A stretch of DNA of 59,451 bases, counting the filler. It is 4 parts of 4 records of this genome, joined end to end, with 100 filler letters (N's around TTAATTAATTAA, not from the genome) between each part and the next. Parts side by side here need not be neighbours in the genome. Positions count along the whole stretch, not along the records: positions 1 to 12,215 come from SRR31156797_5863; 3 more parts are not named here. The stretch is one strand, 5' to 3'. Below, in pieces: positions 1 through 45,648 of the stretch (positions are counted from its first letter, which is position 1; the number at the start of each line of letters is the position of its first letter). The position numbers and the translations under genes are program-made. The notes under the pieces are model-generated. The model was given only the letters and a program-made list of their open reading frames with translations. It had not been told where the DNA came from and did no database searches.

Positions 1-57
1 GTTGTACGTGTGGTATTTGAATCAAAATTACTGGTAGGTAAAGTGATATTGAAATAA
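1..57 (+). CDS. 3' end of a truncated gene, possibly ending in a T9SS C-terminal sorting domain
   Basis: Frame 1 reads VVRVVFESKLLVGKVILK* and is followed by a hairpin. The K-V-I-L-K ending resembles T9SS type A CTD ends. Only 18 codons are visible. Confidence 0.35.
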   Translation, partial: VVRVVFESKLLVGKVILK

Positions 58-78
58 AAGATGTAAAAAAAATAAGCG

Positions 79-116
79 AATGGGAATCTGGATGTATTAT
101 CCGGCTTCCCATTTTT
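79..116. terminator. Intrinsic terminator-like hairpin between convergent genes
   Basis: AATGGGAATCTGGAT-gtatt-ATCCGGCTTCCCATT followed by a T-run. Confidence 0.6.
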
Positions 117-223
117 ATTTGTTGAAATATTAAAGTATTTAATTCTTTTGTGTTGCTGAATATTTGGAAGAATTACCTATTAGGATTTCATTATAAAGAA
201 AAGAAGGTGTTGTATAGCAAGTT

Positions 224-928
224 CTAAAAAGTTCCAATTAAAGCGTACTTATCTGCGTTACAGAATACCTGACTATAAAATGAAAAATCAGGTCTGTTGG
301 TGTCTATTTTTCTGTCTAACTGAATGATAGGTTGATCTTTACTGACGTTAAAGTAGTTTTGAAGCTTGTCGGTTGCTAAAATGGCCTGTATTTTTTGCTC
401 TCCACCGGTCACTTCAATCTGATGATATTCTCTCATTATATTAAACAAAGACTTGTTTTCAAAGTTCCTGGAGGTAAAGCGAGGAAGGTTGATATTAGGT
501 ATTTTAGTGATGTCATAGAATACGGGTTCATCATTTATTAAACGCAATCGCTCAAGGTGAATGCAGCCAAATTCTTTCTCGCGTTCAGAAATAGAGAAGG
601 AAAAAGCTTCTTCCCACGGTCTTATTTCTGGTTTAATAATGATTTTAGTGCTTAAGTTTTCCTGAGCCAGAGCACTGGTGGTTCCACCGATAGATAAGAT
701 GCCGATGCCTTTAGGAGTTCCCTTAACAATGCTTCCTTTTCCTTTTCTTTTTACTATAAAACCATCATTAACCAATTTATCTAAAGCTTTTCTGATAGTG
801 GGTCTTGTTACACCATAGGTCGCGCAAAGTTCATTTTCTGAGGGAAGTAAATCTCCTTCGGAATACACACCTTCTAAAATGTGTTTGCGGAGTGCTTCGT
901 ATACAATGGTATGTTGAGGTTTATTCAT
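224..928 (-). CDS. GntR family (HutC/UTRA subfamily) transcriptional regulator
   Basis: N-terminal wHTH LPSENELCATYGVTRPTIRKAL plus a C-terminal UTRA-like domain. ATG at 928 preferred over TTG at 946. Confidence 0.9.
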   Translation of the reverse strand: MNKPQHTIVYEALRKHILEGVYSEGDLLPSENELCATYGVTRPTIRKALDKLVNDGFIVKRKGKGSIVKGTPKGIGILSIGGTTSALAQENLSTKIIIKPEIRPWEEAFSFSISEREKEFGCIHLERLRLINDEPVFYDITKIPNINLPRFTSRNFENKSLFNIMREYHQIEVTGGEQKIQAILATDKLQNYFNVSKDQPIIQLDRKIDTNRPDFSFYSQVFCNADKYALIGTF

Positions 929-1150
929 ATTGTTCTCTTTTATCAAATCTCCATGCGAGATCAGGGATAAAGGCCCAAAATTATAAAATATAATTCATTT
1001 ACAATATTGGGTGACTTTGTCTGATCTATATCTTCTTGTTTTGTTTGTCTGCCTGTGTGTGCTTATTAGTTTACTTTCTCATTGTCTAATGAAATTACAT
1101 ATGGATTCAGAAAGTAAGGAATTCGCGTTTAGTAAAAGTATATAATTTAA

Positions 1151-1278
1151 ATGTAAATACATGTAGAACTAACATGTAAATACATAAATAAATTATTTGA
1201 ATTGTATAAAACTCAGTAAAAGAGAGGTTTAAGAATTTTAAGTAAAAAATTAATAATTGTAACTTGTAAATACAAGTT
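1151..1278. promoter_or_regulatory. Three copies of palindromic TGTAAATACA, candidate GntR operators
   Basis: ATGTAAATACAT at 1151-1162 and 1174-1185, and AACTTGTAAATACAAGTT at 1261-1278, in the divergent gntR/E2 intergenic region. Confidence 0.7.
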
Positions 1279-1314
1279 GATATTTGTAAGTTTGATGCAA
1301 ATTAAAATCAGTTT

Positions 1315-2646
1315 ATGGCTACAGTTGTTATTATGCCCCGTCAAGGGCAGTCCGTTGAATCCTGCATATTTACAGAATGGTTTAAGCAGGTTGGCGATGA
1401 AGTTAAACAAGGCGACATGTTGTTTGCTTACGAAACAGATAAAGCATCTTTTGAAGAAGAGGCTCAGGCAGATGGTGTATTGCTGGCTGTATTTTGCAAT
1501 GAAGGAGATGAGGTTCCTGTGTTGCAAAATATTGCAGTAATTGGTCAGCCTGGTGAAAATATAGATGAATTTAAAGCTGGAGGAGGTGAATCAGAAGCTT
1601 CTTCTAATGCTGGAAGTTCTGCAGGTGAAGAAAAAGAAGAGGCCTTGGTTGAGGCAGCTCCTGAAGTTGAGGTAAAAACCAAAGAAGTTGTTGACGGTGA
1701 AAAGGTGAAGATATCTCCTCGTGCTAAAAGATTAGCAGAAAAAGAGGGTGTTCCTTATGAAACAATTGAAGGTTCAGGTCCTGAAGGACGAATTATTGAA
1801 AGAGATGTGGAGGCATTTGCAGCTACTCGACCAAAAGTTACTCCATTAGCTAAAGAAGTAATGAAAGAGGAAGGTTTACTTCCGGTAGAAGAAGGTTCTG
1901 GTTTAGGAGGAGCTGTAAAAGCTGCCGATCTTACTTCTTCGAATCCTGTCTATGCAGAAGACTTTGAGATTAGGAAATTACCAAATATACGTAAGTTGAT
2001 TGCTAAAGCTATGCATGCTTCCTTACAGAATTCTGCTCAGTTAACGCACCATTTAGGTGCCGATGCTCGCAAAGTAATGGAGTTGCGCAAGCAGGTTAAG
2101 GCAAAAGAAGGTGCGCCAAATATTACTATTAATGATATGGTTTGTCTGGCAGTTATTAAAGCATTAAAAGCATTTCCTGATGCCAATGCACACTTCCTGG
2201 GCGATAGTATTAAGTATTTCAATAAAGTGCATCTGGGATTGGCTGTGGATACCGATAGAGGATTAATGGTTCCGGTTATTAAAAATGCAGATGACTTGTC
2301 AGTAACAGGACTTAGTCGTCAAATGAAAGAGGTGGCCGATGCTTGTCGTCAGGGAAATATTGCGCCTGAATTATTGGCATCAGAAGCAGCTTCGTTTACG
2401 GTTTCTAATTTGGGAGCTTATGGCGTGGAGATGTTTACCCCGGTTATCAATTTACCTCAGGTGGCTATTTTAGGTGTGAATACCATTGTGCCTCGTCCTA
2501 CTGATTTAGGTGGAGGAGTATACGGATTTGTGCCATATATGGGATTGAGTTTAACCTACGATCACCAGGCATTGGATGGAGGTATTGCTACGCGATTCCT
2601 AAAACAGATAGCCATTGAAATAGAAAATCTGGAAATTGATATTTAA
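1315..2646 (+). CDS. Dihydrolipoamide acyltransferase (E2) of a 2-oxoacid/acetoin dehydrogenase-type complex
   Basis: Single lipoyl domain (YETDKA), E3-binding domain (ISPRAKRLA...GSGPEGRI), catalytic YDHQALDG. Confidence 0.92.
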   Translation: MATVVIMPRQGQSVESCIFTEWFKQVGDEVKQGDMLFAYETDKASFEEEAQADGVLLAVFCNEGDEVPVLQNIAVIGQPGENIDEFKAGGGESEASSNAGSSAGEEKEEALVEAAPEVEVKTKEVVDGEKVKISPRAKRLAEKEGVPYETIEGSGPEGRIIERDVEAFAATRPKVTPLAKEVMKEEGLLPVEEGSGLGGAVKAADLTSSNPVYAEDFEIRKLPNIRKLIAKAMHASLQNSAQLTHHLGADARKVMELRKQVKAKEGAPNITINDMVCLAVIKALKAFPDANAHFLGDSIKYFNKVHLGLAVDTDRGLMVPVIKNADDLSVTGLSRQMKEVADACRQGNIAPELLASEAASFTVSNLGAYGVEMFTPVINLPQVAILGVNTIVPRPTDLGGGVYGFVPYMGLSLTYDHQALDGGIATRFLKQIAIEIENLEIDI

Positions 2647-2701
2647 GCGATTTGAGTTTATAGTTTGATTAATTGATAGGTAGTTTTTAGAAAAAGTTAG
2701 C

Positions 2702-2737
2702 GGAGTAAAAAGGAAATTGTCCCTTCTTTTTACTCCC
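2702..2737 (+). terminator. Intergenic hairpin between E2 and E3 (terminator/attenuator or stability element)
   Basis: GGAGTAAAAAGGA...TTCTTTTTACTCC inverted repeat. Confidence 0.45.
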
Positions 2738-2768
2738 GGCTTTTATCCTTAAAAGAAAAAATACGCAA

Positions 2769-4130
2769 ATGTATGATTTAGCAATTATAGGTGGTGGTCC
2801 TGCAGGTTATGTAGCTGCAGAAAGGGCTGGTGCCAAAGGTTTAAAAGTGGTATTAGTTGAGAAGAAAGAGTTGGGTGGTGTTTGTTTAAACGAAGGCTGT
2901 ATTCCAACTAAAACTTTATTGTATAGTGCTAAGCTTTATGATGGAGCTATAGGCGGTGCCAAATATGGAATTGAAGCTAAAGAAGTAAGCTTCAATTTTG
3001 GTAAGATGATGGCACGCAAGAATAAAATTGTGAAGAAATTAGTGGGTGGTGTGGGAGCAAAAATGAAGATGTTCAATGTCACTACCATAAAAGGAAATGC
3101 CTTGATAAAAGGACGTAGCCAACAAGGTGTGGAGATAGCCATTGACGATCAAATTGTGATGGCAACTAATTTATTGATTTGTACAGGATCAGAGGCTTTT
3201 GTTCCTCCTATTCCTGGTTTAGGTGAGCCGAATGACATCATACTAACCAATAGAGAAATACTGGACTTAAAAGAAAAACCGGATTCCTTAATTGTAATTG
3301 GTGGCGGTGTGATAGGGATGGAGTTTGCCAGTTTCTTTAATAGTCTGGGAACCAAAGTTACTATTGTTGAGATGTTGGATGAAATCCTGACGGGAATGGA
3401 TGTTGAGATGAGCGCCATGTTACGTCAGATGTATGTCAAAAAAGGCATCGAATTTAATTTGTCTTCAAAAGTGACTAAAGTCGAGGGTAATCAAGTCACC
3501 TTTGAGAAAAATGGAAAAGAGACAACTATTTCAGGAGATAAAATATTAGTGAGCGTAGGTCGAAAACCAGTAACCACAGGTTTTGGATTGGAGAATCTGG
3601 GTGTTGAGTTATTCCGTGGAGGAATTAAGGTGGATGAAAAAATGCAAACCAATATTCCTAATGTATATGCAGCAGGAGATGTTACAGGTTTCTCATTGTT
3701 AGCTCATACTGCCAGCCGCGAAGGAGAAGTGGTGGTGAATAATTTGTCTGGACGTCCGGATAAAATGCGCTATAATGCTATTCCTGGCGTAGTGTATACC
3801 AACCCTGAAATTGCCGGAGTAGGTTTGACAGAAGAAGCAGCTAAAGCCAAAGGAATTGAATATAAGGTTTCAAAATTACCGATGGCTTATGCAGGTCGCT
3901 TTGTAGCTGAAAACGAAGGCGGATCAGGTCTTTGTAAAGTATTAGTGGGAGCTAAATATGGAGAGGTACTTGGTGTTCATATGTTGGGAAATCCTTCCAG
4001 TGAAATGATTTACGGTGCTTGTATGGCCATCGAAGGAGAGTTTACACTTAAGGAAATGGAAGAAGTGGTATTTCCGCATCCAACCGTTTCCGAAATATTT
4101 AAAGAAACGGTATTCGGGTTTGGACACTAA
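2769..4130 (+). CDS. lpdA: Dihydrolipoyl dehydrogenase (E3)
   Basis: GGGPAGY FAD motif, redox disulfide GGVCLNEGCIPTK, GGGVIG NAD motif, C-terminal HPTVSE. Confidence 0.95.
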   Translation: MYDLAIIGGGPAGYVAAERAGAKGLKVVLVEKKELGGVCLNEGCIPTKTLLYSAKLYDGAIGGAKYGIEAKEVSFNFGKMMARKNKIVKKLVGGVGAKMKMFNVTTIKGNALIKGRSQQGVEIAIDDQIVMATNLLICTGSEAFVPPIPGLGEPNDIILTNREILDLKEKPDSLIVIGGGVIGMEFASFFNSLGTKVTIVEMLDEILTGMDVEMSAMLRQMYVKKGIEFNLSSKVTKVEGNQVTFEKNGKETTISGDKILVSVGRKPVTTGFGLENLGVELFRGGIKVDEKMQTNIPNVYAAGDVTGFSLLAHTASREGEVVVNNLSGRPDKMRYNAIPGVVYTNPEIAGVGLTEEAAKAKGIEYKVSKLPMAYAGRFVAENEGGSGLCKVLVGAKYGEVLGVHMLGNPSSEMIYGACMAIEGEFTLKEMEEVVFPHPTVSEIFKETVFGFGH

Positions 4131-4238
4131 AACCTGTGATGAATCATATAGAATTTAAAAATAAAAAAATCAAGAAAACAGAAAATCAGAGTTGGTAAAA
4201 CTGCAATAGTTTATCTGTGATCTAAAAATCTTAAAAAT

Positions 4239-6707
4239 ATGCCAAAGTCACAATTTATTGACCCTACGAAGGTCAGAAAATCAGGGAAAGTAAAAATTAA
4301 AGATATTCCCGTAAATCAGTATGATAAAACCATGGAAGAGGAGAAGTCGAATTTCTCCAAAGAGCAGTTGATTGGTATTTATCATGACATGGCACTTATC
4401 CGTGAGTTTGAAACAATGTTAAACTTAATCAAAACGCGCGGTGAATATGAAGGAATAGAGTATAACCATCCTGGACCAGCTCACTTGTCAATTGGACAGG
4501 AATCTGCTGCTGTAGGTATGGCTTATCACTTAAATGTGGAAGATTTTATTTTTGGTTCGCACCGTTCGCATGGTGAGATCTTAGCTAAAGGAATGTCTGC
4601 TATTCATAAGCTATCGGATGATGCTTTGATGGACATCATGCAAAATTTCTTCGACGGAACTATTCTTAAAATTGTATCTAAAAATCACGATGGTGATGTG
4701 AAATCATTGGCTCGTCGATTTTTAGTTTACGGAACCTTGGCAGAGATTTTTGCTCGCGAGACAGGTTTCAACAAAGGACTAGGTGGTTCTATGCATGCCT
4801 TCTTTACACCTTTTGGAGTATATCCAAATAATGCAATTGTAGGTGGATCAGGCGATATTGCTGTGGGTGCTGCCTTGTTTAAAAAAGTAAATCAAAAAGA
4901 TGGTATTGTAGTAGCAAACATAGGTGATGCTTCTATGGCTTGTGGTCCGGTTTGGGAAGGTTTGGCCTTTGCATCTATGGATCAGTTTGAGCAATTGTGG
5001 GAAGGTGCTTACAAAGGCGGACTTCCAATCATCTTTAATATCATGAATAACCAATATGGTATGGGCGGTCAAACTTGTGGTGAAACCATGGGATATGATA
5101 TTGCGGCTCGTATTGGTGCGGGTGTAAACCGCGATAGTATGCATGCGGAACGTGTTGATGGTTATAATCCATTGGCTGTGATTGATGCTTACAAGCGTAA
5201 AATGGAGTTGATTAAGGATAAAAAAGGTCCTGTATTGCTGGATGTGCTGACTTATCGTTATAGTGGTCACTCTCCTTCGGATGCTTCTTCGTATCGTTCA
5301 AAGGAAGAGATTGAAGCTTGGGAAGCACAGGATTGTATTGTTTCTTTCGGTAAAGAGTTGGTTGGAGCCAGTCTTGCCAGTGATGCAGAATTAGATGCGA
5401 TTAAAGCCGACATCACTGAACTGATGAAGTATGCCATGAAATTATCTATTGATGAGGAAGTTTCTCCGCGTATGGATTTAGTAAAACATCCTGAAATTAT
5501 TGGAGATATGATGTTCTCTAATGAGAGTGTGGATAAAATGGAAGATCGTCCGGTTGAGGTGAATCATCCTTATGAAGAAAATCTTCGTGTTCAGCAAATC
5601 GCCAAAAAAGAGCGTTTTGCCTTTGATGCAAACGGAAAAGCATTTTCAAAAATCAAGCAATATCAGTTAAGGGATGGTTTATTCGAAGCGATCGCTGATC
5701 GTTTTTATAAAGATCCAACTTTAGTAGCTTATGGTGAAGAAAATCGTGATTGGGGTGGTGCTTTCGCTGTGTATCGTGGATTGACAGAGGCACTTCCTTA
5801 TAATCGTTTATTTAACTCTCCAATTTCAGAGGCATCTATCATTGGTACTGCTATTGGTTATGCCATGTGTGGTGGTCGTGTGATTCCGGAAATTATGTAT
5901 TGCGATTTCTTGGGTCGTTGTGGTGATGAGGTGTTTAATCAGTTACCAAAATGGCAGGCCATGTCAGGTAATGTGATTAAAATGCCGGTTGTTATTCGGG
6001 TATCGGTAGGTTCTAAATATGGAGCTCAGCACTCACAGGACTGGTCATCGTTGGTAGCGCATATTCCGGGATTAAAAGTTTGTTTCCCTGCTACACCATA
6101 TGATGCAAAAGGATTAATGAATACAGCGCTTCAAGGAACTGATCCTGTTATTTTCTTTGAAAGTCAGCGTATTTACGATATAGGTGAGCAATTCCATACG
6201 GAAGGTGTACCTGCAGAATATTATGAAATTCCATTCGGTGAGCCGGATGTTAAACGAGAAGGTAAAGATGTGACAATCGTTTCGATTGGAGCGACACTTT
6301 ACAGAGCTTTAGAAGCAGCAGAAGAATTGAAAGAGAAATACGGAATGGAAGCTGAGGTAATTGATGCCCGTTCTATCGTTCCATTCAACTATGAGCCGGT
6401 AATTGAGTCGTTGAAAAAGACAGGTCGCATTATTCTGACAAGTGATGCCAATGAAAGAGGTTCTTATCTGAAAGATATGGCTGCTCGTATTACAGAGCTA
6501 GCATTCGACGAATTGGATGCACCACCGGTTGTGGTAGGGTCACGTAACTGGATTACACCTGCTTACGAGTTAGAAGAATTCTTCTTCCCAAGCAAAGAAT
6601 GGATAATTGATGCCATTCATGAGAAGATAGTTCCGTTAAAAGGACATGTAGTGAAAAATAATTTTACAAATGCTGAAATTATCCGTCGTGGTAAATTAGG
6701 TATTTAA
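4239..6707 (+). CDS. Fused E1 alpha/beta thiamine-diphosphate-dependent dehydrogenase component
   Basis: E1-alpha motifs HLSIGQE, SHRSHGE, GGSMH, GDA...NN and YRYSGHS fused to E1-beta motifs YGEE, NSPISEASIIG, EIMYCDF and GAQHSQ. Confidence 0.9.
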   Translation: MPKSQFIDPTKVRKSGKVKIKDIPVNQYDKTMEEEKSNFSKEQLIGIYHDMALIREFETMLNLIKTRGEYEGIEYNHPGPAHLSIGQESAAVGMAYHLNVEDFIFGSHRSHGEILAKGMSAIHKLSDDALMDIMQNFFDGTILKIVSKNHDGDVKSLARRFLVYGTLAEIFARETGFNKGLGGSMHAFFTPFGVYPNNAIVGGSGDIAVGAALFKKVNQKDGIVVANIGDASMACGPVWEGLAFASMDQFEQLWEGAYKGGLPIIFNIMNNQYGMGGQTCGETMGYDIAARIGAGVNRDSMHAERVDGYNPLAVIDAYKRKMELIKDKKGPVLLDVLTYRYSGHSPSDASSYRSKEEIEAWEAQDCIVSFGKELVGASLASDAELDAIKADITELMKYAMKLSIDEEVSPRMDLVKHPEIIGDMMFSNESVDKMEDRPVEVNHPYEENLRVQQIAKKERFAFDANGKAFSKIKQYQLRDGLFEAIADRFYKDPTLVAYGEENRDWGGAFAVYRGLTEALPYNRLFNSPISEASIIGTAIGYAMCGGRVIPEIMYCDFLGRCGDEVFNQLPKWQAMSGNVIKMPVVIRVSVGSKYGAQHSQDWSSLVAHIPGLKVCFPATPYDAKGLMNTALQGTDPVIFFESQRIYDIGEQFHTEGVPAEYYEIPFGEPDVKREGKDVTIVSIGATLYRALEAAEELKEKYGMEAEVIDARSIVPFNYEPVIESLKKTGRIILTSDANERGSYLKDMAARITELAFDELDAPPVVVGSRNWITPAYELEEFFFPSKEWIIDAIHEKIVPLKGHVVKNNFTNAEIIRRGKLGI

Positions 6708-6721
6708 TACTCCTCTGATCT

Positions 6722-6752
6722 ATGCCGGGTATCTGTAATGGATGCCCGGTAT
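6722..6752 (+). terminator. Intergenic hairpin after E1
   Basis: ATGCCGGGTATC-tgtaatg-GATGCCCGGTAT inverted repeat with no clear T-tract on the + strand. Confidence 0.4.
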
Positions 6753-6775
6753 TAAAAAAATCTACAAATAAAACC

Positions 6776-7993
6776 ATGGAAAATCTATCTACAATACCCG
6801 AAAAATCAAACGTTTTGTCATGGATTAAAGACAATCGCATTTTAAATGTGAATGGTCACGTGCATACGCCTTATTCCTTTAGTGCATTCGAAAATATTCC
6901 ACAAATGTTTCAGCTGGCACAAAAAGAAGAGGTGAAAGTATTAGGCATCAATGATTTTTATACCACGGATGGCTACGAAGAATTTAATAAGCTGGCGCAG
7001 GAGAGCAAAGTATTTCCTTTGTTTAATATTGAGTTTATTGGCTTAAATGTCGAAGATCAGCAAAAGGGTTTAAAAGTAAATGATCCTGGAAATCCGGGAC
7101 GAACCTATTTTTCAGGCAAAGGTTTGGCTTTTCCGGCTAAACTGGATGAGCCATATGCTTCCAAGCTTAATAATGTAAAAGCAGAGACTTTAAAACAAGT
7201 GGAAGCGATGGTGGATAAAACCAACGAATTATTTGAGGAAATTGGTTCTGATATTCGTATCTCAATGACCGAAATATTTGAAAAATATGCCGTTGATCAG
7301 GTAAGAGAAAGACATATCGCTAAAATCATAAGAGTAAAGGTGTATGAAAAGTACAGTTCAGATGCTGATCGTTTGGCTTTCTTTCAAAAACTATATTCTG
7401 GTAAAGAAGCAGCGGCCGATTTGGAAAATAACTCTGCTGTAGAAAATGAAATCAGAGGGAATTTGTTAAAGGCAGGCGGGAAAGCTTTTGTGGCTGAAGA
7501 TCCTAAAGCCTTTTTAGCAGTGACGGAGGTAAAAGAAATTATCCTGAATGCGGGGGGAATTCCAACTTATCCTTTATTAGCGGATAATGCCAAGGGAGAA
7601 TATACCGACTTTGAGGAAAACAAGGAGTTATTACTTCAAAATTTAAAGGAAAGAGGAATTTATTCTATTGAATTTATTCCTAATCGTAACGATTTGCAGA
7701 AGTTAAAAGAGTATGCCAGATTTTTTTGGAATAATGGAATTCTGGTGACTTTTGGTACAGAACACAATACGCCTGATTTAATTCCCTTGTTGGTTGAAAC
7801 CCGTGGACATGTTGATTTAGATGAAGAGATGAAACTGTTATCTTATCAAGGTGCTTGTGTGGTTGCGGCTCATCAATATTTGATTGCAAATGGTAAATTT
7901 GGTTTTGTTAAAGAAAACGGAGATAGAAATGGCGATTCGTTACAACCATTTGTAGAACTAGGGGATCGAATTATAAAAGAATACATAAACTAA
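6776..7993 (+). CDS. PHP-domain metal-dependent phosphoesterase family protein
   Basis: HxHT motif NGHVHTPYSFS, GINDF and GTEHN. ATG at 6776 preferred because 6722 lies in the hairpin. Confidence 0.75.
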   Translation: MENLSTIPEKSNVLSWIKDNRILNVNGHVHTPYSFSAFENIPQMFQLAQKEEVKVLGINDFYTTDGYEEFNKLAQESKVFPLFNIEFIGLNVEDQQKGLKVNDPGNPGRTYFSGKGLAFPAKLDEPYASKLNNVKAETLKQVEAMVDKTNELFEEIGSDIRISMTEIFEKYAVDQVRERHIAKIIRVKVYEKYSSDADRLAFFQKLYSGKEAAADLENNSAVENEIRGNLLKAGGKAFVAEDPKAFLAVTEVKEIILNAGGIPTYPLLADNAKGEYTDFEENKELLLQNLKERGIYSIEFIPNRNDLQKLKEYARFFWNNGILVTFGTEHNTPDLIPLLVETRGHVDLDEEMKLLSYQGACVVAAHQYLIANGKFGFVKENGDRNGDSLQPFVELGDRIIKEYIN

Positions 7994-8028
7994 ATATTCT
8001 TGCCTGAAAAAGATAAAAATGAATAAAA

Positions 8029-9168
8029 ATGGCAATAGACAAAAAAGTAGTTGAAATAGTTCCTGCTCTTCGAACCATGCTTTCGGAAGAAGCGATTAAA
8101 GTAGCCAGGGTGGCCGAAAATGCAGATGCTTCCATAGCGCAAATTAGCGTTGAGTTAAGTGATAATGCAGCGGATACCGTAGCAAAGGTGAAAGAATTAG
8201 CAGAGGCATTTAAAAAGGAGCAAGGGCAGTTTCCAAAGCTCATTTATATAAAAGGAATTGGTTTAGTGGCTGTGGCTGAAACCAGTTATGAAGTGACTTG
8301 CCTATTGGAACAAAAAGAACCTGGAGAAATCAATCCGGGCACAGGAAGAGCTGTTGGTAAAACAGCCGTTATTACCGGAGGTGCCCAGGGATTTGGTGGT
8401 GGTTTGGTGGAGTATATGATCAAAGATGGAGGTAATGTAATTATCGCCGACTTAAATGAGGAGAAAGGGAAAGAGTTTGCAGCTGAACTGAATCAAAAAG
8501 CAAAATATAACAAAGCTTGTTTTGTGAAGGTGGATGTTTCTAATCCAGAATCTGTAGAGAATTTGATTCACGAAACAGTATGTGAGTTTGGAGGTTTTGA
8601 TGTGTTTATTTCCAATGCCGGGGTATTGAGAGCCGGTGGTTTGGATGAAATGACACCGGAAACCTTTGATTTTATGACCAAGGTAAATTATACCGGATTC
8701 TTCTATTGTGCCAAGTACGCTGCTAAAGTTTTAAAAGTACAGACAGCTAGTAAGCCGGGTTATTATGGCGATATTATTCAGATAAATTCCAAATCAGGAT
8801 TAAAAGGAAGTAACCGAAACTTTGCGTATGCAGGTGGTAAGTTTGGAGGCATTGGTTTAACCCAGTCTTTTGCCTTAGAGCTGATGCCTAGCAGAGTAAA
8901 AGTGAATTCTATTTGCCCGGGAAATTTCTTTGATGGCACGCTATGGAGCGATCCTGAAAAAGGACTATTTGTGCAGTATTTAAATGCCGGTAAGGTAAAA
9001 GGCGCCAAAACCATTGAAGATGTAAAAGCATTTTACGAAGCACAGGTTCCGGCAGGAAGAGGATGTACCGTTATTGATGTAATGCGTGCTGTGTACTATG
9101 TAATGGAGCAGGAATACGAAACAGGCCAGGCCGTTCCGGTAACCGGAGGTCAGGAAATGTTGAAATAA
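8029..9168 (+). CDS. SDR oxidoreductase, sorbitol-6-phosphate 2-dehydrogenase (SrlD)-like, with an extra N-terminal region of about 105 aa
   Basis: TGGAQGFG, IIQINSKSG, YAGGKFGGIGLTQSFALEL and ETGQAVPVTGGQEM match SrlD-type SDRs. Confidence 0.8.
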   Translation: MAIDKKVVEIVPALRTMLSEEAIKVARVAENADASIAQISVELSDNAADTVAKVKELAEAFKKEQGQFPKLIYIKGIGLVAVAETSYEVTCLLEQKEPGEINPGTGRAVGKTAVITGGAQGFGGGLVEYMIKDGGNVIIADLNEEKGKEFAAELNQKAKYNKACFVKVDVSNPESVENLIHETVCEFGGFDVFISNAGVLRAGGLDEMTPETFDFMTKVNYTGFFYCAKYAAKVLKVQTASKPGYYGDIIQINSKSGLKGSNRNFAYAGGKFGGIGLTQSFALELMPSRVKVNSICPGNFFDGTLWSDPEKGLFVQYLNAGKVKGAKTIEDVKAFYEAQVPAGRGCTVIDVMRAVYYVMEQEYETGQAVPVTGGQEMLK

Positions 9169-9202
9169 TAGAATACCTACAGACAAACTAAACAAACTAA
9201 GG

Positions 9203-9868
9203 ATGGAGTATGAAGTGAAGGGAGTGATCTTCGATTTGGATGGTACATTGGTAGATTCCATTGAAGATATGGCAGATGCAGCCAACGAGATGTTGCAGCA
9301 AAATGGTTTTCCTACGCATGAGTTGAAGGATTATAAAAGATGGATTGGTAATGGTGCCCGAAGATTAGTTGAAGCATCGCTGCCACCTTGCGAAAGAGGC
9401 GATGATGTAACGATTTATTTATTGCAGTATGAAAAGCATTATGCTGCTAAGCTTTTATCAAAGACAAAACTATTCGACGGAATAGAAGTGGTTTTGAATG
9501 AAATTAGCCGGGCAGGAATTCCAATGGCTGTTTTAACCAATAAAAAGCAATCGTGGGCTGAGCAAATTGTGAAAGAGTTGTTGCATCAATGGCATTTCGA
9601 AAAGATTATAGGTCATGGTAATGCTTTTCCGCATAAACCCGATTCTCAGGGAGCTTTGCATTTCTGTAAATCAATTAGTGCTGCCCCACAACAGGTTCTT
9701 ATCATAGGGGATTCTGTGGTAGATATGCAAACGGCCAGGACAGCAGCCATGATTCCTTTGGGTGTAAAATGGGGATATGGTTATCCTCAGATGGAAGGCA
9801 ATCATGTGGAAGTTGTAAATACCCCACTTGAAATACTCCGGCATCTTCGTTTACAGCTCAGAGCCTGA
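9203..9868 (+). CDS. HAD-superfamily phosphatase (phosphoglycolate phosphatase-like)
   Basis: FDLDGTLVDS, LTNK, HKPD and IGDS motifs. Confidence 0.88.
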   Translation: MEYEVKGVIFDLDGTLVDSIEDMADAANEMLQQNGFPTHELKDYKRWIGNGARRLVEASLPPCERGDDVTIYLLQYEKHYAAKLLSKTKLFDGIEVVLNEISRAGIPMAVLTNKKQSWAEQIVKELLHQWHFEKIIGHGNAFPHKPDSQGALHFCKSISAAPQQVLIIGDSVVDMQTARTAAMIPLGVKWGYGYPQMEGNHVEVVNTPLEILRHLRLQLRA

Positions 9869-9947
9869 TTAAGCTTTGACGGCATTATGATGTTTAAATG
9901 AAGATTCGGAAAAGGTTTAGGATGTTTAAAAAATAAAAACAAGAGAA

Positions 9948-11228
9948 ATGAATACTAAAGCAGTTCGTTTATATGGTAAAAAAGACCTTCGTTTGGAAGA
10001 GTTTGAATTACCGGCCATCAAAGAGGATGAGATATTAGCTAAAGTAGTTTGCGATAGTTTATGTATGTCATCGTATAAGGCGGCTAACCAGGGAACCGAT
10101 CATAAGCGCGTTCCTGATGATGTGGCCGAAAACCCGATAATCATTGGACATGAATTTGCCGGAGAACTGGTTGAGGTCGGTTCTAAATGGAGTTCTCAGT
10201 TTAAGGTCGGAGATAAATTCTCGATTCAACCAGCTTTGAACTACAAACAAGGTCCGGTAGGAATTTTAAGTGCGCCGGGTTATTCGTATCATCATATTGG
10301 AGGAGATGCAACTTATGTAGTTATTCCGGCTGAGGTAATGGAATTAGGTTGTTTACTACCCTATAAAGGCGAAGGATTTTATCCGGCTTCTCTTTCGGAA
10401 CCATTATCATGTGTGATAGGAGCTATGCATGCCAATTATCATACAACTCCGGGATCTTATATTCATAATATGGAGATTGTAGGTGGTGGAAAAATGGCTA
10501 TTCTGGCCGGAGTTGGCCCAATGGGATTGGCGGCCATTAATTATGCTTTGCGCAGAGAAGATCGTAAACCTGCCTTATTGGTGGTAACCGATATCGATCA
10601 AACAAGATTAGATAGAGCAGCTAGTTTGTACACTGTTGATTTTGCCAAATCCAGAGGGATTGATTTACGCTATGTAAACACCTCGGAAATGAGCGATGCG
10701 GTGGCCGGATTAAAAGAAATTTCGGGCGATACAGGTTACGATGATGTGTTTGTATTTGCTCCGGTAGCACCAGTTGTGGAGCAGGCTGATGCTATTTTAG
10801 GTTTTGATGGATGTTTAAACTTTTTTGCAGGGCCATCGAATCCTGAGTTTAAAGCACAAATGAATTTTTATAATGTGCATTATGCATTTACCCATGTCGT
10901 TGGGACCAGCGGTGGAAATACCGATGATATGAAAGAGGCGCTGGATGTAATGTCTAAAGGCTTGGATCCTGCCGGTTTGGTAACGCATATTGGAGGGTTA
11001 AACGCGGTGGCGGATGCTACTTTAAAACTTCCGGAAATACCGGGCGGTAAAAAATTAATCTACAACCACGTAGAAATGCCATTAACTGCTATTAACGATT
11101 TTAAGAAACTGGGACAGGAAAATGCCGTTTATGCACTACTAGCTGATGTTTGCGAAAGACACAAAGGACTATGGAGTGTGGAAGCCGAAGAATTATTGCT
11201 CGCCAATGCCAAAAAACTGAATTATTGA
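9948..11228 (+). CDS. Zn-dependent medium-chain dehydrogenase, L-sorbose-1-phosphate reductase (SorE/YggP)-like
   Basis: RLYGKKDLRLEEFELP, DSLCMSSYKA, HKRVPDD...GHEF, EPLSCVIGA and GVGPMG. Confidence 0.82.
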   Translation: MNTKAVRLYGKKDLRLEEFELPAIKEDEILAKVVCDSLCMSSYKAANQGTDHKRVPDDVAENPIIIGHEFAGELVEVGSKWSSQFKVGDKFSIQPALNYKQGPVGILSAPGYSYHHIGGDATYVVIPAEVMELGCLLPYKGEGFYPASLSEPLSCVIGAMHANYHTTPGSYIHNMEIVGGGKMAILAGVGPMGLAAINYALRREDRKPALLVVTDIDQTRLDRAASLYTVDFAKSRGIDLRYVNTSEMSDAVAGLKEISGDTGYDDVFVFAPVAPVVEQADAILGFDGCLNFFAGPSNPEFKAQMNFYNVHYAFTHVVGTSGGNTDDMKEALDVMSKGLDPAGLVTHIGGLNAVADATLKLPEIPGGKKLIYNHVEMPLTAINDFKKLGQENAVYALLADVCERHKGLWSVEAEELLLANAKKLNY

Positions 11229-11255
11229 TTTAGGATAAACTAAAAATAAGATATT

Positions 11256-11300
11256 CTCAAGCCCCGGCTATTAGCGTAATGCGCATAGCCGGGGTTTGAG
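11256..11300 (+). terminator. Strong hairpin after the MDR gene
   Basis: CTCAAGCCCCGGCTA...TAGCCGGGGTTTGAG followed by TTT. Confidence 0.6.
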
Positions 11301-11323
11301 TTTAAGCTCTAAAAAATGAACTC

Positions 11324-12040
11324 ATGCATAAACCCATTGCACTCATAACCGGATCAACCCGGGGAATTGGAAAAGCCATAGCTCTGGAGATGGCGAAGAA
11401 TAATTATCAGGTGATGATTACCGGAACCAATCAGGAATTAATCAATCAGGTAGTGTCTCAGATTATAGAAGAAGGTGGAGAGGCAGAAGGGTTTCCATGC
11501 AATCTTTTAGAAAGCAATTCACCTGCAGATTTGATTCAACAAATAATCACAAACCATGGTCGTTTGGATGTGTTGGTGAATAACGCAGGAGTGGCCTGGG
11601 CTAATTCCTTTGAAAATGTAACTGAAGAGGATTTTGATAAAGTGATGACTTTAAATGCAAAGACACCTATGTTTCTGACCAAAGCAGTATTGCCATACCT
11701 AAAGAAATCGGAAGAAAAGGCCATTGTTAATATTACTTCGGTGGTGGGACATAAGGCCTATCCCAACCAAACGTTGTATGCCGCATCAAAGCATGCGCTG
11801 GAAGGTATGATGAGTGCTTTGGCTAAAGAATATCAATCAGAAGGATTACGAGTGTACAACGTAGCTCCCGGCGGTGTAGCTACAGAAATGATTCAAACTG
11901 CACGACCGGATTTAGACCCGGAAGGCTTAATTCAACCCGAAGAAATTGCCAAAATCGTGATGTTCCTTTTGTCTTTAAAAGGCAATGCGCAAATCGATCG
12001 CATCAACATCCGACGAAAAGAGAATACGCCTTTTGAGTAG
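11324..12040 (+). CDS. Classical SDR family oxidoreductase
   Basis: TGSTRGIG, NNAG and YAASK motifs. Confidence 0.9.
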   Translation: MHKPIALITGSTRGIGKAIALEMAKNNYQVMITGTNQELINQVVSQIIEEGGEAEGFPCNLLESNSPADLIQQIITNHGRLDVLVNNAGVAWANSFENVTEEDFDKVMTLNAKTPMFLTKAVLPYLKKSEEKAIVNITSVVGHKAYPNQTLYAASKHALEGMMSALAKEYQSEGLRVYNVAPGGVATEMIQTARPDLDPEGLIQPEEIAKIVMFLLSLKGNAQIDRINIRRKENTPFE

Positions 12041-12215
12041 TGTATTTTCAATTTCAAAATATCACTATCCAATAGATTGATGTAAATAATTGTACTATAC
12101 TTCTTAAGAATCGAGTATACACAATTAGATTTATTTCATACAAGCAAATGCAGTCTGACCTCGTTTTTAAATGTCGTTTGTTTTGACTAAAACGTTAGTA
12201 AGACCGGGAAGTTGA

Positions 12216-12315
12216 NNNNNNNNNNNNNNNNNNNNNNNNNNNNNNNNNNNNNNNNNNNNTTAATTAATTAANNNNNNNNNNNNNNNNNNNNNNNNNNNNN
12301 NNNNNNNNNNNNNNN
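12216..12315. other. Artificial contig linker
   Basis: 44 N + TTAATTAATTAA (stops in all six frames) + 44 N. Confidence 0.98.
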
Positions 12316-12316
12316 G

Positions 12317-12826
12317 GATATGTTATGGATGGGATATATGAATCCTTTTTATAATTATGGATTAGAAAACTTCTTAAAAAAAGCCGATGAATTTGGTGTA
12401 AATGGTATGATTATTCCAGATTTACCTTTTGAGGAAGCACAATTAGTTAAACCTTTATTTGATAAATACAATAAAGCAAATATTGCCTTTGTAGCTCCTA
12501 CTCACCATGAAAATAGAATTAAGCAAGTAGTTCAAAATGCTGAAAAATTTATTTATATGGTTGCTTATGCTGGTATTACGGGAAGTGGTCAAAGTGAAGA
12601 TTTAACTTACATTATTGATACAGTGAAAAAATACTCAGACACTCCTTTATACATAGGTTTTGGTGTTGATGAAAAGACTTGTAAAGAGAAGGCTAAAGGT
12701 GTTGATGGTGTTATTGTTGGAAGTGCTTTTGTAAAACACTTAATTGATACTTCATTGTCAAATAGTGAAAAAATTGATAGAATAACAAAAATCGCAAAAG
12801 AAATAAAAGAGAAGATAAACGAATAG
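12317..12826 (+). CDS. trpA: Tryptophan synthase alpha chain, 5'-truncated by the contig edge
   Basis: MGYMNP, IIPDLPFEE, FIYMVAYAGITG, IGFGV and DGVIVGSA. Confidence 0.92.
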   Translation, partial: DMLWMGYMNPFYNYGLENFLKKADEFGVNGMIIPDLPFEEAQLVKPLFDKYNKANIAFVAPTHHENRIKQVVQNAEKFIYMVAYAGITGSGQSEDLTYIIDTVKKYSDTPLYIGFGVDEKTCKEKAKGVDGVIVGSAFVKHLIDTSLSNSEKIDRITKIAKEIKEKINE

Positions 12827-12833
12827 ATAGATT

Positions 12834-13571
12834 ATGCATATTTTAGAACGGGACGTAGAATTTGTAGAAGAGCAACGAGAGTGCTCATATTTTGATGATG
12901 AAATATCTGATATAAGATATAGGTACATAAGTAATTGCAAAAAAGAAGACTACCAAAACATGCTAGAACATGGTTGGCGTAGATTTGGTAAAATGCATTT
13001 TGTACCTGAATGTAGAGATTGCACAAAATGTATCTCTATGCGTATCGATGTAAAAAACTATAAATTTTCTCGTTCTGAAAAAAGAGTATTTAAAAAGAAT
13101 CTAGATACAAAAGTTTATATTCAACCCCCATCTCTTACTTTAGACCATTTAAAACTTTATGATAAATATCATTACCACATGAACAAAAAGAAAAACTGGA
13201 ATTACTCTCCAATTGAACCTGCTGAGTATGACAGGTCTTACGTTCAAGGGAAAGATGATTTTACAAAAGAGTTTTTATATGTAAGGGATGATAAGTTAAT
13301 TGGAGTAGCTTTAGTTGATATTTTATCTGGGGCTATTTCTTCTATTTACTGTTTTTATGACCATGACTACGAAGACCTATCTATAGGGAAGTTTTCAATT
13401 CTAGCTCAAATAAAAATAGCAAAAGAGTTAAATGTTCCATATATCTATTTAGGGTATTGGATTAAAGACCATTTTTCAATGGGATATAAAGATGCATATA
13501 AGCCTTTTGAAATTTTAACTAATAGAGCAACTCTTAAAGAAGAGGCTATTTGGGAAGAGTACAAATCGTAA
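12834..13571 (+). CDS. ate: Bacterial ATE-like aminoacyl-tRNA--protein transferase (Bpt-type, N-degron pathway)
   Basis: CSY, GWRRFG, CxxCxxCxxxR, YCFYD and YIYLGYWI. Confidence 0.88.
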   Translation: MHILERDVEFVEEQRECSYFDDEISDIRYRYISNCKKEDYQNMLEHGWRRFGKMHFVPECRDCTKCISMRIDVKNYKFSRSEKRVFKKNLDTKVYIQPPSLTLDHLKLYDKYHYHMNKKKNWNYSPIEPAEYDRSYVQGKDDFTKEFLYVRDDKLIGVALVDILSGAISSIYCFYDHDYEDLSIGKFSILAQIKIAKELNVPYIYLGYWIKDHFSMGYKDAYKPFEILTNRATLKEEAIWEEYKS

Positions 13572-13616
13572 CCAAAATATGATATAATTTCTCCAACATA
13601 AATAAAGTGAGAAGAT

Positions 13617-13955
13617 ATGAAAAAAATTATATTAATATCTCTTTTTTTACTTTCAACAATTTTTGCAGAGACAATTGATGAAGATACAAAATATAGTGCT
13701 GATTGTTTAATTTTAGAGGATGAGAACTCTATAGTTTGTAAATATATTCATGAGCGTTCAGAGGAAGACAAAGAGATTCAAGTTCAGTGGATTGACCCAG
13801 ATGGTGAGATTTCAAGGGATAGAGTTTTACTTATTCCAGCAGGGCATGGATCAATTTATGATTTTAGATATATTGCAGGTAGACTTCCTGGAATATGGCA
13901 ATTTAAAGTTATAGATAATAAAAGAGAGACAGTAACTACTTTCGAAATCAAGTAA
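13617..13955 (+). CDS. Hypothetical exported protein
   Basis: Signal peptide MKKIILISLFLLSTIFA followed by a small beta-rich mature domain. Confidence 0.7.
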   Translation: MKKIILISLFLLSTIFAETIDEDTKYSADCLILEDENSIVCKYIHERSEEDKEIQVQWIDPDGEISRDRVLLIPAGHGSIYDFRYIAGRLPGIWQFKVIDNKRETVTTFEIK

Positions 13956-13963
13956 TAGTTAGT

Positions 13964-16072: not shown

Positions 16073-16296
16073 GATAGTTTCTCTACTTCAATATATCTTG
16101 CTTCTGATTTTCGTAAGGCAATCTTTGTATTATTTACTTTTATTTCGATTGTGTTTTTTGATAAGGTTTGCTCTATAACTACTACTTCTGAATTTCTTGT
16201 AATACCAAAAGAGTTAAGTCTTGCTTTTAGTTTATCTGTACATGAGATAGAAATAATTTTCGCACACTCATTTTTAGATAGTTCATTTAAATACAA
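16060..16296 (-). CDS. feoA: Ferrous iron transport protein A
   Basis: RLNSFGI...IALRKSEA SH3-like FeoA pattern; overlaps the feoB start; GGA RBS before the TTG start. Confidence 0.88.
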   Translation of the reverse strand: MYLNELSKNECAKIISISCTDKLKARLNSFGITRNSEVVVIEQTLSKNTIEIKVNNTKIALRKSEARYIEVEKLSCKN

Positions 16297-16311
16297 TTAA
16301 GGTCCTTCATT

Positions 16312-16330
16312 AATAATGATTATCATTAGT
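16312..16330. promoter_or_regulatory. Fur box upstream of feoA
   Basis: AATAATGATTATCATTAGT matches GATAATGATAATCATTATC at 15/19 and contains a perfect 7-1-7 palindrome TAATGAT-T-ATCATTA at 16314-16328. Confidence 0.85.
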
Positions 16331-16491
16331 CAATAGTACTGAAAAAATACTTAAAATATTAAATTAATTTCTTTGCTATGAAGAGTTTTTGGTGTAATAT
16401 AACTAAAATTAATGCTATTTGTGAAAGAGTTTAAGTAAAATTGAACTGTTTTGTGCAATAATTATATAATAAAATATTTAAGGGTAGATTG

Positions 16492-16932
16492 ATGGCAGAT
16501 AGCAATGAAGTAATTGATGAACTGAAAAAAATTGTTAAACAAAAAGGTTTAAAATATACAGAGCAAAGAGAAATTGTTCTAAATGTTTTACTTCACGCTG
16601 ATGACCACTTAACTGCTGAGGAAATTTATAATCTGATTAAAACAACTAATCCAGACTCTAATATAGGTATTGCTACTGTTTATAGAGCACTAAGTTTTCT
16701 AGAAGAAGTTAATTTAATTGCATCAATTAATTTTGGTGTAGATGGTAAGAAGTATGAGAGTAATAAAAAAGAGCATCATGATCATCTAATTTGTACATCT
16801 TGTGGAAAGATTATTGAGTTCTTAGATGATGAAATTGAAAAAAGACAAGACAGAATTGCTAAGAAGAACAAGTTTAAGATCACTAGTCACTCTATGCAAC
16901 TTTATGGTACTTGTCCAGATTGTCAAGAGTAA
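16492..16932 (+). CDS. fur: Ferric uptake regulator
   Basis: GLKYTEQR, HLTAEE, IGIATVYR, HHDHLICTSCG and CPDC; TATAAT at 16465-16470 upstream; divergent from Fur-boxed feoAB. Confidence 0.9.
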   Translation: MADSNEVIDELKKIVKQKGLKYTEQREIVLNVLLHADDHLTAEEIYNLIKTTNPDSNIGIATVYRALSFLEEVNLIASINFGVDGKKYESNKKEHHDHLICTSCGKIIEFLDDEIEKRQDRIAKKNKFKITSHSMQLYGTCPDCQE

Positions 16933-16949
16933 AAATAGGAATACTTTTC

Positions 16950-17447: not shown

Positions 17448-17538
17448 AGATAATCCTTGATGATTTTTTATTATTATATCAAAATTTTTGTTTTTTTTTG
17501 TTATAATCCGCGAATTAATATATAAGCTAAGGTTTTAA

Positions 17539-21773: not shown

Positions 21774-21873
21774 NNNNNNNNNNNNNNNNNNNNNNNNNNN
21801 NNNNNNNNNNNNNNNNNTTAATTAATTAANNNNNNNNNNNNNNNNNNNNNNNNNNNNNNNNNNNNNNNNNNNN
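21774..21873. other. Artificial contig linker
   Basis: 44 N + TTAATTAATTAA + 44 N. Confidence 0.98.
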
Positions 21874-45205: not shown

Positions 45206-45305
45206 NNNNNNNNNNNNNNNNNNNNNNNNNNNNNNNNNNNNNNNNNNNNTTAATTAATTAANNNNNNNNNNNNNNNNNNNNNNNNNNNNNNNNNNNNNNN
45301 NNNNN
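45206..45305. other. Artificial contig linker
   Basis: 44 N + TTAATTAATTAA + 44 N. Confidence 0.98.
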
Positions 45306-45590: not shown

Positions 45591-45648
45591 AACCGAGGAT
45601 TGCGATCAACAGATATTAAACAACATATTAAACAGTAGGTATATACAT

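Follow-up and report, generated by a model that had tools for sequence, protein, structure and literature searches.

Contig 1 (record SRR31156797_5863) of the 59,451-base stretch of assembled DNA analyzed here, hereafter the window, carries a nine-gene cluster in which a thiamine diphosphate (ThDP)- and lipoate-dependent complex of the 2-oxoacid/acetoin dehydrogenase kind is encoded alongside a SorE-like medium-chain dehydrogenase/reductase (MDR), two short-chain dehydrogenase/reductases (SDRs), a PHP-fold phosphoesterase and a HAD phosphatase. The cluster is real, conserved and widespread, and it possibly encodes a new sugar-cleaving reaction within this kind of complex. Our preferred reading, to which we assign a probability of roughly 40%, is that it forms an operon for the utilization of L-rhamnose/6-deoxyhexose in a marine, Saccharicrinis-like bacterium of the Bacteroidales, in which the complex, the MDR and an SDR together yield acetyl-CoA from the methyl end of the sugar.

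Gene content of the cluster

The cluster takes up the whole of contig 1 and comprises the following genes:

224–946, minus strand: GntR/UTRA regulator (HutC subfamily; Pfam GntR 69.7 bits, UTRA 65.5 bits), divergent from the other eight genes
1315–2646, plus strand: E2 dihydrolipoyl acyltransferase (Pfam 2-oxoacid_dh 211 bits, E3_binding, Biotin_lipoyl)
2769–4130, plus strand: E3 dihydrolipoyl dehydrogenase (CLNEGC redox motif; TIGR01350 498 bits, cut-off 408.8)
4239–6707, plus strand: fused, ThDP-dependent E1 alpha-beta of 822 amino acids (Pfam E1_dh 161 bits, Transket_pyr 99 bits, Transketolase_C 97 bits; orthologues 72–91% identical)
6722–7993, probable start 6743, plus strand: predicted PHP-fold metal-dependent phosphoesterase (Pfam PHP 26.9 bits, a weak match)
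8029–9168, plus strand: SDR of 379 amino acids with a 110-residue N-terminal extension (adh_short 146 bits; best family SrlD, NF009050)
9203–9868, plus strand: HAD-IA phosphatase, phosphoglycolate-phosphatase-like (HAD_2 120 bits)
9948–11228, plus strand: MDR of 426 amino acids, predicted SorE/YggP-family Zn-dependent dehydrogenase (ADH_N, ADH_zinc_N; Cys...GHE motif)
11324–12040, plus strand: second classical SDR, 238 amino acids (adh_short 191 bits), a lineage-specific addition

A first-pass annotation of the window had described these nine open reading frames in this order; all were recovered at the coordinates it gave, and their domains were borne out by Pfam and NCBIfam. The arrangement is no accident and recurs in related genomes. 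The regulator has the N-terminal GntR winged helix-turn-helix and C-terminal UTRA domain of the GntR/HutC family. Translation of the E2 gene gives an ETDKA lipoyl-lysine motif and a DHQALDG catalytic motif, that of the E1 gene a GDA...NN ThDP motif and the GHS histidine, and the domains and motifs of E1, E2 and E3 are those of 2-oxoacid/acetoin dehydrogenase multienzyme complexes. The spacer within the GDA...NN motif is presumably longer than that in the alpha subunit of pyruvate dehydrogenase (PDH) E1. E2 reached no NCBIfam equivalog cut-off, and E1 fell below every NCBIfam cut-off, including those of the PDH E1 models TIGR03182 (203 vs 394 bits) and NF008854 (236 vs 454 bits). In a sequence comparison with the PDB, the alpha part of E1 was closest to PDH E1 alpha (97 bits), with branched-chain 2-oxoacid dehydrogenase (BCKDH) at 49 bits. 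The E3 gene is absent from the cluster at several related loci.

From its sequence, the MDR can be assigned to the SorE/YggP family of ketose-1-phosphate reductases. It is 50.7% identical, over 96% of the length, to the annotated sorE product of Klebsiella pneumoniae, which lies in a canonical sor operon (SorC-SDR-PTS IIABCD-sorE, PTS being the phosphotransferase system), so that the label SorE-like given to it earlier holds; identity to E. coli yggP, which adjoins the cmtBA PTS genes, is 52–53%. At this level of identity to SorE a phosphorylated ketose or hexitol is the likely substrate, and this in turn weighs against oxidation of lactate or propanediol by the MDR.

The SDR encoded at 8029–9168 aligns with residues 219–641 of a 642-residue aldolase-SDR orthologue at 52% identity, and its N-terminal 110 residues are, judging from this alignment, the linker remnant of a RhaEW-like aldolase-SDR fusion whose aldolase domain has been lost. 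It has no Aldolase_II match and scores 119 bits against the RhaEW model TIGR02632 (cut-off 568). Aldolase-SDR fusions of 640–700 residues, for which RhaEW-type families are the best models, occupy its position in most relatives. The HAD protein is classified as a HAD-IA member only, scoring below the Gph equivalogs (NF009695, 154 vs 225 bits; TIGR01449, 137 vs 180 bits); a close copy occurs only in the Saccharicrinis genome G002 described below, and other HAD-IA or HAD-IIA genes fill its place at related loci. The second SDR likewise has a 95% identical copy in G002 only, with matches of 26–27% elsewhere.

An AlphaFold model of the PHP protein built on 36 homologues had a predicted local distance difference test score (pLDDT) of 91.4. 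Foldseek searches with it returned PHP proteins of the cog0613 type, namely RNase AM (PDB ID: 9etk), BAD_1165 (PDB ID: 3e0f) and Cv1693 (PDB ID: 2yb1), with TM scores (target) of 0.68–0.73 and E values of 1e-10 to 6e-12. An HxH motif (H39, H41) and further His, Asp and Glu residues are invariant in the alignment of 36 sequences, and we assign the protein, on the strength of the model, a predicted cog0613-type PHP fold. About 120 residues form a helical insert without counterpart in the structural matches, and by sequence the protein had no match in the PDB at E≤1. A wide search scored about 8,000 candidates, with 5,805 at E≤0.001; all source names were generic among the 120 matches listed.

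Linkage and co-occurrence within the order

G002 is a 5.75-Mb Saccharicrinis chromosome from a metagenome-assembled genome, with an E1 100% identical to that of the window and the remaining cluster proteins 95–99% identical. Among 151 genomes sampled from its order, 24 encode an E1 orthologue (72–100% identity). The PHP gene is present in exactly those 24 and in none of the other 127, and the MDR gene in 23 of the 24 as against one of the 127. Up to 20 kb was fetched around 20 of the E1 genes. At 13 of these loci, PHP and SDR (or aldolase-SDR) genes lie within 10 kb downstream of GntR-E2-(E3)-E1, usually with the MDR gene and sometimes with a TAL/FSA gene. The other seven lack the linkage to PHP and SDR, several of them on short contigs, and in one genome (G058) the two parts of the cluster appear to meet divergently over a contig break. 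The linkage of E1 to the sugar genes, on which the first-pass annotation had staked its reading, is thus conserved, both at the 13 loci and in the coincidence of E1 and PHP in the same 24 genomes.

Where PHP modules lie at a distance from E1 they keep their partners, which include HAD-IIA, a FucA-like aldolase, HAD-IA, an aldo-keto reductase, the aldolase-SDR and the MDR, and many loci carry mannitol-1-phosphate dehydrogenase-like, aldo-keto reductase and HAD genes. This variety of arrangements argues for selection on linkage. In-frame stops interrupt the PHP orthologue of genome G137 (G137:C18:51798-53048; a TGA and a TAA) and the MDR orthologue of G080 (G080:C11:224771-226030; a single TAG), perhaps through sequencing errors or because the copies are decaying.

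Phylogeny of the E1 family

Reference E1 sequences were taken from annotated plasmids: two sets of PdhAB, one set of Bkd, and Aco sequences recognized by synteny (the Paracoccus acoXABC genes with a butanediol dehydrogenase and a sigma-54 regulator, and operons from Enterococcus and Acinetobacter). The trees are quick ones of 29 rows with few references, of which only the well-supported splits are trusted. In both the alpha-part and the beta-part trees, the family of 822-residue E1 proteins, represented by the window, two orthologues, 13 metagenome loci and a Rhizobium plasmid (pRL8), forms one clade with an SH-aLRT support of 100 and a long stem. The clade joins those of Aco and Pdh in a group (support 96–99) whose three-way split is unresolved; Bkd falls outside this group together with the 683- and 808-residue fused paralogues of genomes G002 and G003. 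The comparison with PDH, BCKDH and AcoAB that had been proposed at the outset therefore sets the window family apart from all three clades, and E1 could be placed as a member of none of them. Both computational checks suggested there, on linkage and on the tree, thus speak for the first-pass interpretation, which is supported in part.

Besides the cluster E1, G002 (L013, L018) and G003 (L014, L019) each encode two more fused E1 alpha-beta paralogues: one of about 683 residues that adjoins its own E2, and one of about 808 residues that lacks an E2 neighbor and whose branch is very long. G002 has separate sets of E1/E2 genes, one like 2-oxoglutarate dehydrogenase and one of the 683-residue type, which makes the complex of the cluster an extra one. 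We also considered a housekeeping PDH or BCKDH; this is made unlikely by the extra E1/E2 sets of G002, by the trees and by the sugar-type regulators.

Relatives in metagenomes and on a Rhizobium plasmid

A metagenome scan with an alignment of non-Bacteroidota E1-alpha sequences led to 80 mapped loci, of which 29 have the MDR gene, 13 a PHP gene (45–51% identity) and four a distant PHP-like gene (23–25%). Twelve loci of high guanine-cytosine (GC) content, 0.54–0.60 (L120, L123, L124, L128–L130, L132, L135–L139), encode MDR, E2 and E1 in a row, with the MDR 60% and the E1 59% identical to the window proteins; these loci have no match to E3, PHP, aldolase or SDR. The annotated neighbors of the high-GC genes include ones of housekeeping type, such as LytB, an S1-domain protein and 5-enolpyruvylshikimate-3-phosphate synthase. 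A related locus without an MDR match (L118) has a HAD gene directly after E1. Several of the high-GC contigs are labeled as human-gut metagenome.

Firmicutes-like contigs carry a DeoR regulator, lipoyl-ligase- and lipoyl-synthase-like genes, MDR, E2, E3 and E1, together with an SDR of 266 residues, a PHP-like gene, an FGGY kinase and stand-alone class II aldolases. At one such locus (L091), the 266-residue SDR passes the SrlD cut-off (371 vs 307 bits), and the FGGY kinase, scanned at this locus only, is rhamnulokinase-like at 514 bits, below the cut-off of 528. On plasmid pRL8 of Rhizobium johnstonii 3841 (L156, NC_008383.1 71151-101547), the gene for a fused E1 of 55% identity precedes those for a lipoyl protein and an alpha/beta hydrolase, which both have AcoC as their best match and so make up a split AcoC-like E2; then come a PfkB kinase and a SorC-type regulator. 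To the other side lie a psicose-epimerase-like gene, a sugar ATP-binding cassette system whose binding protein is RhaS-like, and a gene for a FucU-like protein. As a carrier of the E1 family, R. johnstonii 3841 can be both cultured and manipulated genetically. In every setting the E1 family is found among sugar genes, and deoxy-sugar genes recur.

Rhamnose genes around the cluster

The rhamnose isomerase RhaA was found in 18 of the 24 E1-positive genomes and in 18 of the 127 E1-negative ones. Among these RhaA carriers, rhamnulokinase was not found in six of the 18 E1-positive genomes, the complete G002 chromosome included, vs one of the 18 E1-negative ones, a contrast that weakly hints at another way of handling rhamnulose in some carriers of the cluster. 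In G002, G101 and G102 the cluster has RhaA or RhaB no more than a few kb away, the distance from rhamnulokinase to MDR in G102 being 2.4 kb. In G130 the two class II aldolase-fold genes known from G002 are again next to RhaA, on another contig than the cluster. L-fucose genes were considered as neighbors as well, and FucI was never adjacent in the five genomes checked.

In G002 the upstream flank of the cluster holds a hybrid two-component regulator and two rhamnogalacturonan lyases of polysaccharide lyase family 11 with type-9 secretion tails. Downstream follow a TAL/FSA-family protein of 221 residues, a protein of 229 residues without family, a phosphohexomutase and an AraC regulator, and, 6–7 kb away, RhaT (391 bits) and RhaA (659 bits, cut-off 572). 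After rhaT-rhaA come a stand-alone RhaE-like aldolase (372 residues) and a tandem class II aldolase-fold protein (432 residues) whose best model is 3-oxo-tetronate-4-phosphate decarboxylase, at 174 bits against a cut-off of 250. The far downstream flank also holds glycosidases. The rhaT-rhaA operon of G002 is AraC-controlled and runs on into the aldolase genes (L158 = G002:C1:4984000-5003900, 5744-10839), and there are two RhaA copies in this genome.

The earlier statement that no kinase or transporter accompanies the cluster is correct within the 12.2-kb contig and fails beyond it, given RhaT and RhaA 6–7 kb downstream in G002; the absence is an effect of where contig 1 ends. The context of the cluster is that of L-rhamnose/6-deoxyhexose, not of polyols generally, which narrows the idea of a sugar pathway put forward in the first-pass annotation.

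Regulation

GntR orthologues (54–65% identity) occupy the same divergent position at 17 other loci. Three copies of TGTAAATACA, arranged as direct and inverted repeats in the spacer between the GntR and E2 genes, are candidate operators:

1152–1161: candidate operator
1175–1184: candidate operator
1265–1274: candidate operator

The pattern TGTA-NN-TACA occurs 26 times in the 4,122 nt of 18 GntR-E2 spacers, 17 of which contain it, and six times in the remaining 308,988 nt of the same loci. This distribution suggests that the GntR/UTRA protein binds TGTA-NN-TACA sites. The strict pattern is missing upstream of the unlinked PHP modules (L010, L066–L075), so that a shared regulon is unsupported where the two parts lie apart. 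A TAAGTTTG motif stands 25 nt upstream of the E2 start and fits what we take to be the Bacteroidetes -7 promoter element. Matches in a scan for sigma-70 promoters and terminators were no commoner than in shuffled sequences, and the scan is uninformative for this phylum.

Proposed pathway

Gene content, linkage, co-occurrence, rhamnose context, SorE family, E1 clade and operator motif were observed; all of the chemical steps that follow we infer. In the scheme that we favor, which draws on the known chemistry of each enzyme family, the divergent GntR/UTRA regulator would repress the operon through the TGTA-NN-TACA operators. The MDR would reduce C2 of L-rhamnulose 1-phosphate or L-fuculose 1-phosphate to give a 6-deoxyhexitol phosphate, and the SrlD/RhaW-like SDR would oxidize the carbon adjacent to the methyl group to give a 1-deoxy-2-ketose phosphate, an acetoin-like methyl ketol. 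Because C4 would lose its configuration, the rhamnulose and fuculose phosphates should, by our reasoning, converge on one product. E1 may then cleave the methyl ketol as acetoin dehydrogenase cleaves acetoin, with release of a tetrose 4-phosphate; the acetyl group would pass via the lipoyl-E2 to CoA, and E3 would reoxidize the lipoamide with NAD+. The PHP and HAD proteins and the nearby class II aldolase-fold proteins may process the C4 phosphate or side products. Tentatively, then, a ThDP/lipoate complex would split a 1-deoxy-2-ketohexose phosphate into acetyl-CoA and a tetrose 4-phosphate, an aldolase-independent and energy-conserving route accompanied by a new PHP-fold phosphoesterase, in marine and sediment Bacteroidales, Firmicutes-like anaerobes, human-gut bacteria and on a Rhizobium plasmid.

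Several observations weigh against this scheme. The SDR at 8029–9168 falls short of the SrlD model (NF009050, 219.7 bits vs a cut-off of 307) and shares only 24% identity with the sor-operon SDR, and since the 12 high-GC loci lack an SDR, the two-dehydrogenase step cannot be universal. Six of the 24 E1-positive genomes have no RhaA, and G100 has the cluster but no match to RhaB or FucI. G002 lacks an orthologue of rhamnulokinase (the top-scoring TIGR02627 match, at 137 bits, lies beside FucI), which leaves the source of the ketose 1-phosphate unexplained there. Class II aldolases, RhaE-like and FucA-like, accompany the cluster in most genomes; they are superfluous to the scheme and fit a lactaldehyde route better. 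The PHP and HAD proteins have no assigned step. On stereochemical reasoning, the tetrose phosphate would be D-threose 4-phosphate or L-erythrose 4-phosphate, not the common D-erythrose 4-phosphate. Finally, the carrier genomes are kin, and the co-occurrence counts therefore overstate their independence.

Alternative explanations

Four other explanations were weighed against the cleavage of a 1-deoxy-2-ketose phosphate. The strongest of them, which we regard as unlikely, is a C3 route in which aldolases would release dihydroxyacetone phosphate (DHAP) and L-lactaldehyde, a RhaW-like SDR would convert the latter to L-lactate, the MDR or an enzyme encoded elsewhere would form pyruvate, and the complex would act as a PDH to give acetyl-CoA and CO2. 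According to the available text of PMC3870299, RhaEW homologues have been shown to yield DHAP and L-lactate, and lactate dehydrogenases occur in some rhamnose regulons. The overall stoichiometry is the same as in our scheme, aldolase-SDR fusions or separate class II aldolases go with the cluster, the alpha part of E1 is nearer to PDH than to BCKDH among solved structures (97 vs 49 bits), and neither G002 nor G003 has an AceE-type E1. However, the MDR, 51% identical to SorE, belongs to a family of sugar-phosphate reductases in which we know of no lactate dehydrogenase; MDR, E2 and E1 are kept together without aldolase or SDR in 12 metagenome loci, and the pRL8 member has a sugar kinase and an AcoC-like E2 and no aldolase. 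The E1 lies outside the Pdh clade and under the PDH equivalog cut-offs, sugar-type repressors (GntR/UTRA, DeoR) are in control, and the PHP and HAD proteins are unexplained by this route too. Less likely again is that the complex takes L-lactaldehyde, or a C3 derivative formed via the MDR or SDR, directly to an acyl-CoA. Such a role has been predicted for Athe_0702-4 in the rhamnose locus of Caldicellulosiruptor bescii (PMC8579813), and lactaldehyde-releasing aldolases are linked to the cluster, but in the available text of PMC8579813 the role is a prediction and the genes are listed as unassigned, and a place for Athe_0702-4 in the 822-residue E1 clade is conjectural. We also reason that cleavage of a C3 ketol would release formaldehyde or formate, and the SorE-family MDR points to a phosphorylated substrate of hexose size.

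An improbable explanation, to be ranked below both of these, is cleavage of the phosphate of an ordinary, non-deoxy ketose to glycolyl-CoA, the general form of the first-pass idea, the rhamnose neighbors being merely co-located pectin genes. SorE/YggP relatives do work in sorbose- and hexitol-type PTS operons, the mannitol-1-phosphate dehydrogenase-like, aldo-keto reductase and HAD genes found at many loci would suit such a substrate, two types of HAD resemble phosphoglycolate phosphatases at scores under cut-off, and a quarter of the E1-positive genomes (6/24) are without RhaA. Yet rhamnose genes recur independently, in G002, G101, G102 and G130, at the Firmicutes-like loci and, as RhaS- and FucU-like genes, on pRL8, and no gene for handling glycolyl-CoA was seen. 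Least probable of all, in our estimate, is an acetoin/2,3-butanediol operon in which the MDR and SDRs would be butanediol and acetoin dehydrogenases and the complex the equivalent of AcoABCL. The E1 clade does stand beside the Aco clade, true aco operons also encode butanediol dehydrogenases, the cluster SDRs give sub-threshold scores with acetoin reductase models (141 and 139 bits), and the MDR weakly matches (R,R)-butanediol dehydrogenase (PDB ID: 6ie0, 36 bits). But the E1 is not within the Aco clade, the MDR is much nearer to SorE (51%) than to butanediol dehydrogenase, Pfam and NCBIfam scans of the cluster detected neither AcoX nor a sigma-54 AcoR, and the surroundings consist of rhamnulokinase, RhaA, RhaT, aldolases and phosphatases.

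Comparison with known systems

Like AcoA/AcoB/AcoC/AcoL, the complex combines a ThDP-dependent E1 (alpha and beta) with a lipoyl E2 and an E3, and the two E1 clades stand level in the trees. The pRL8 member pairs with AcoC-like proteins, and the cluster includes putative ketol-making dehydrogenases, much as aco operons include butanediol dehydrogenase. Unlike the Aco systems, the window E1 is one fused chain of 822 residues on a long separate branch, AcoX and AcoR are missing from the cluster, the regulators of the family are of the GntR/UTRA or DeoR type, and the neighbors are sugar-phosphate and rhamnose genes. The resemblance to the SorE/SorD pair of the Klebsiella sor operon, a known means of moving a carbonyl along a hexose phosphate, lies in the MDR (50.7% to sorE) and in a co-encoded SDR; the window cluster differs in the lack of a PTS, in the low identity of its SDR to the sor SDR, and in that its pair is associated with the E1/E2 complex and with rhamnose genes instead of the uptake of sorbose. 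Another precedent is quinocarcin biosynthesis, in which the ThDP E1-like and lipoyl E2-like proteins QncN/QncL/QncM split a ketose phosphate and keep the resulting C2 unit bound as an acyl-lipoyl group. By description, that system differs in belonging to secondary metabolism and in passing the C2 unit to a carrier protein, not to CoA.

RhaEW (YuxG) is a bifunctional L-rhamnulose-1-phosphate aldolase/L-lactaldehyde dehydrogenase (PMC3870299, available text). Orthologues of the cluster SDR resemble it in being mostly fusions of a class II aldolase with an SDR in a rhamnose-gene context. They differ in that the fusion orthologues score 240 bits against the RhaEW cut-off of 568, the window copy is without the aldolase domain, and this SDR family is invariably accompanied by PHP and MDR, neither of which belongs to the rha regulons described in the available text of PMC3870299; the terms PHP, lipoamide and pyruvate dehydrogenase are absent from the main text of that paper. 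As far as the available text of PMC8579813, a paper of 2021, goes, the rhamnose locus of C. bescii holds a novel three-subunit dehydrogenase, Athe_0702-4, that is homologous to acetoin dehydrogenase. It lies in the RhaR2-regulated rhamnose cluster and was predicted to act on L-lactaldehyde in the final step, given the lack there of a lactaldehyde dehydrogenase and a lactaldehyde reductase. Compared by description only, that locus and the present family share an acetoin-dehydrogenase-like complex, a DeoR-type regulator and a rhamnose setting, the likeness being with metagenome loci that encode DeoR, E2, E3, E1ab, an SDR, a PHP-like gene and rhamnulokinase. Full-text literature searches returned no paper describing the chemistry of the operon, PMC8579813 and PMC3870299 being the only ones with relevant passages, and PMC3333776, a study of pRL8 transcriptomics, makes no mention of the pRL8 E1 cluster in its available text, supplementary tables excluded.

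Composition of the window

The window consists of four contigs joined by artificial N44-TTAATTAATTAA-N44 linkers:

1–12215: contig 1, GC 0.389, the cluster contig
12216–12315: linker, at the end of the cluster contig
12316–21773: contig 2, GC 0.281
21774–21873: linker
21874–45205: contig 3, GC 0.368
45206–45305: linker
45306–59451: contig 4, GC 0.432

The contigs stem from different organisms, the assembly being a mixture, so that only contig 1 bears on the cluster. Contig 2 is 100% identical to G001, a low-GC genome of 2.8 Mb, and the match begins only at position 12316. We considered whether the cluster could belong to this low-GC organism; this is ruled out, as G001 neither matches contig 1 nor encodes a fused E1, and the E1 was found in none of 301 sampled genomes of its phylum. 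Contig 3 shows only about 70% nucleotide identity to Saccharicrinis G002, and contig 4 matches neither G001 nor G002. An open reading frame of 2,472 amino acids on contig 3 (33058–40476, minus strand) is unrelated to the cluster.

Implications

The textbook routes for deoxy sugars leave lactaldehyde behind; anaerobes mostly convert it to 1,2-propanediol and excrete that. The question raised by the cluster is directly testable, since cultured relatives exist in Saccharicrinis, Carboxylicivirga, Sunxiuqinia, R. johnstonii 3841 and Caldicellulosiruptor. If the methyl end is indeed converted to acetyl-CoA, anaerobes would gain more carbon and ATP from deoxy sugars and would release other products, with a bearing on gut cross-feeding and marine carbon turnover. 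Sugar-derived ketol phosphates would then be a third class of substrate for the 2-oxoacid/acetoin dehydrogenase family, and the large family of PHP-fold proteins would have a first function.

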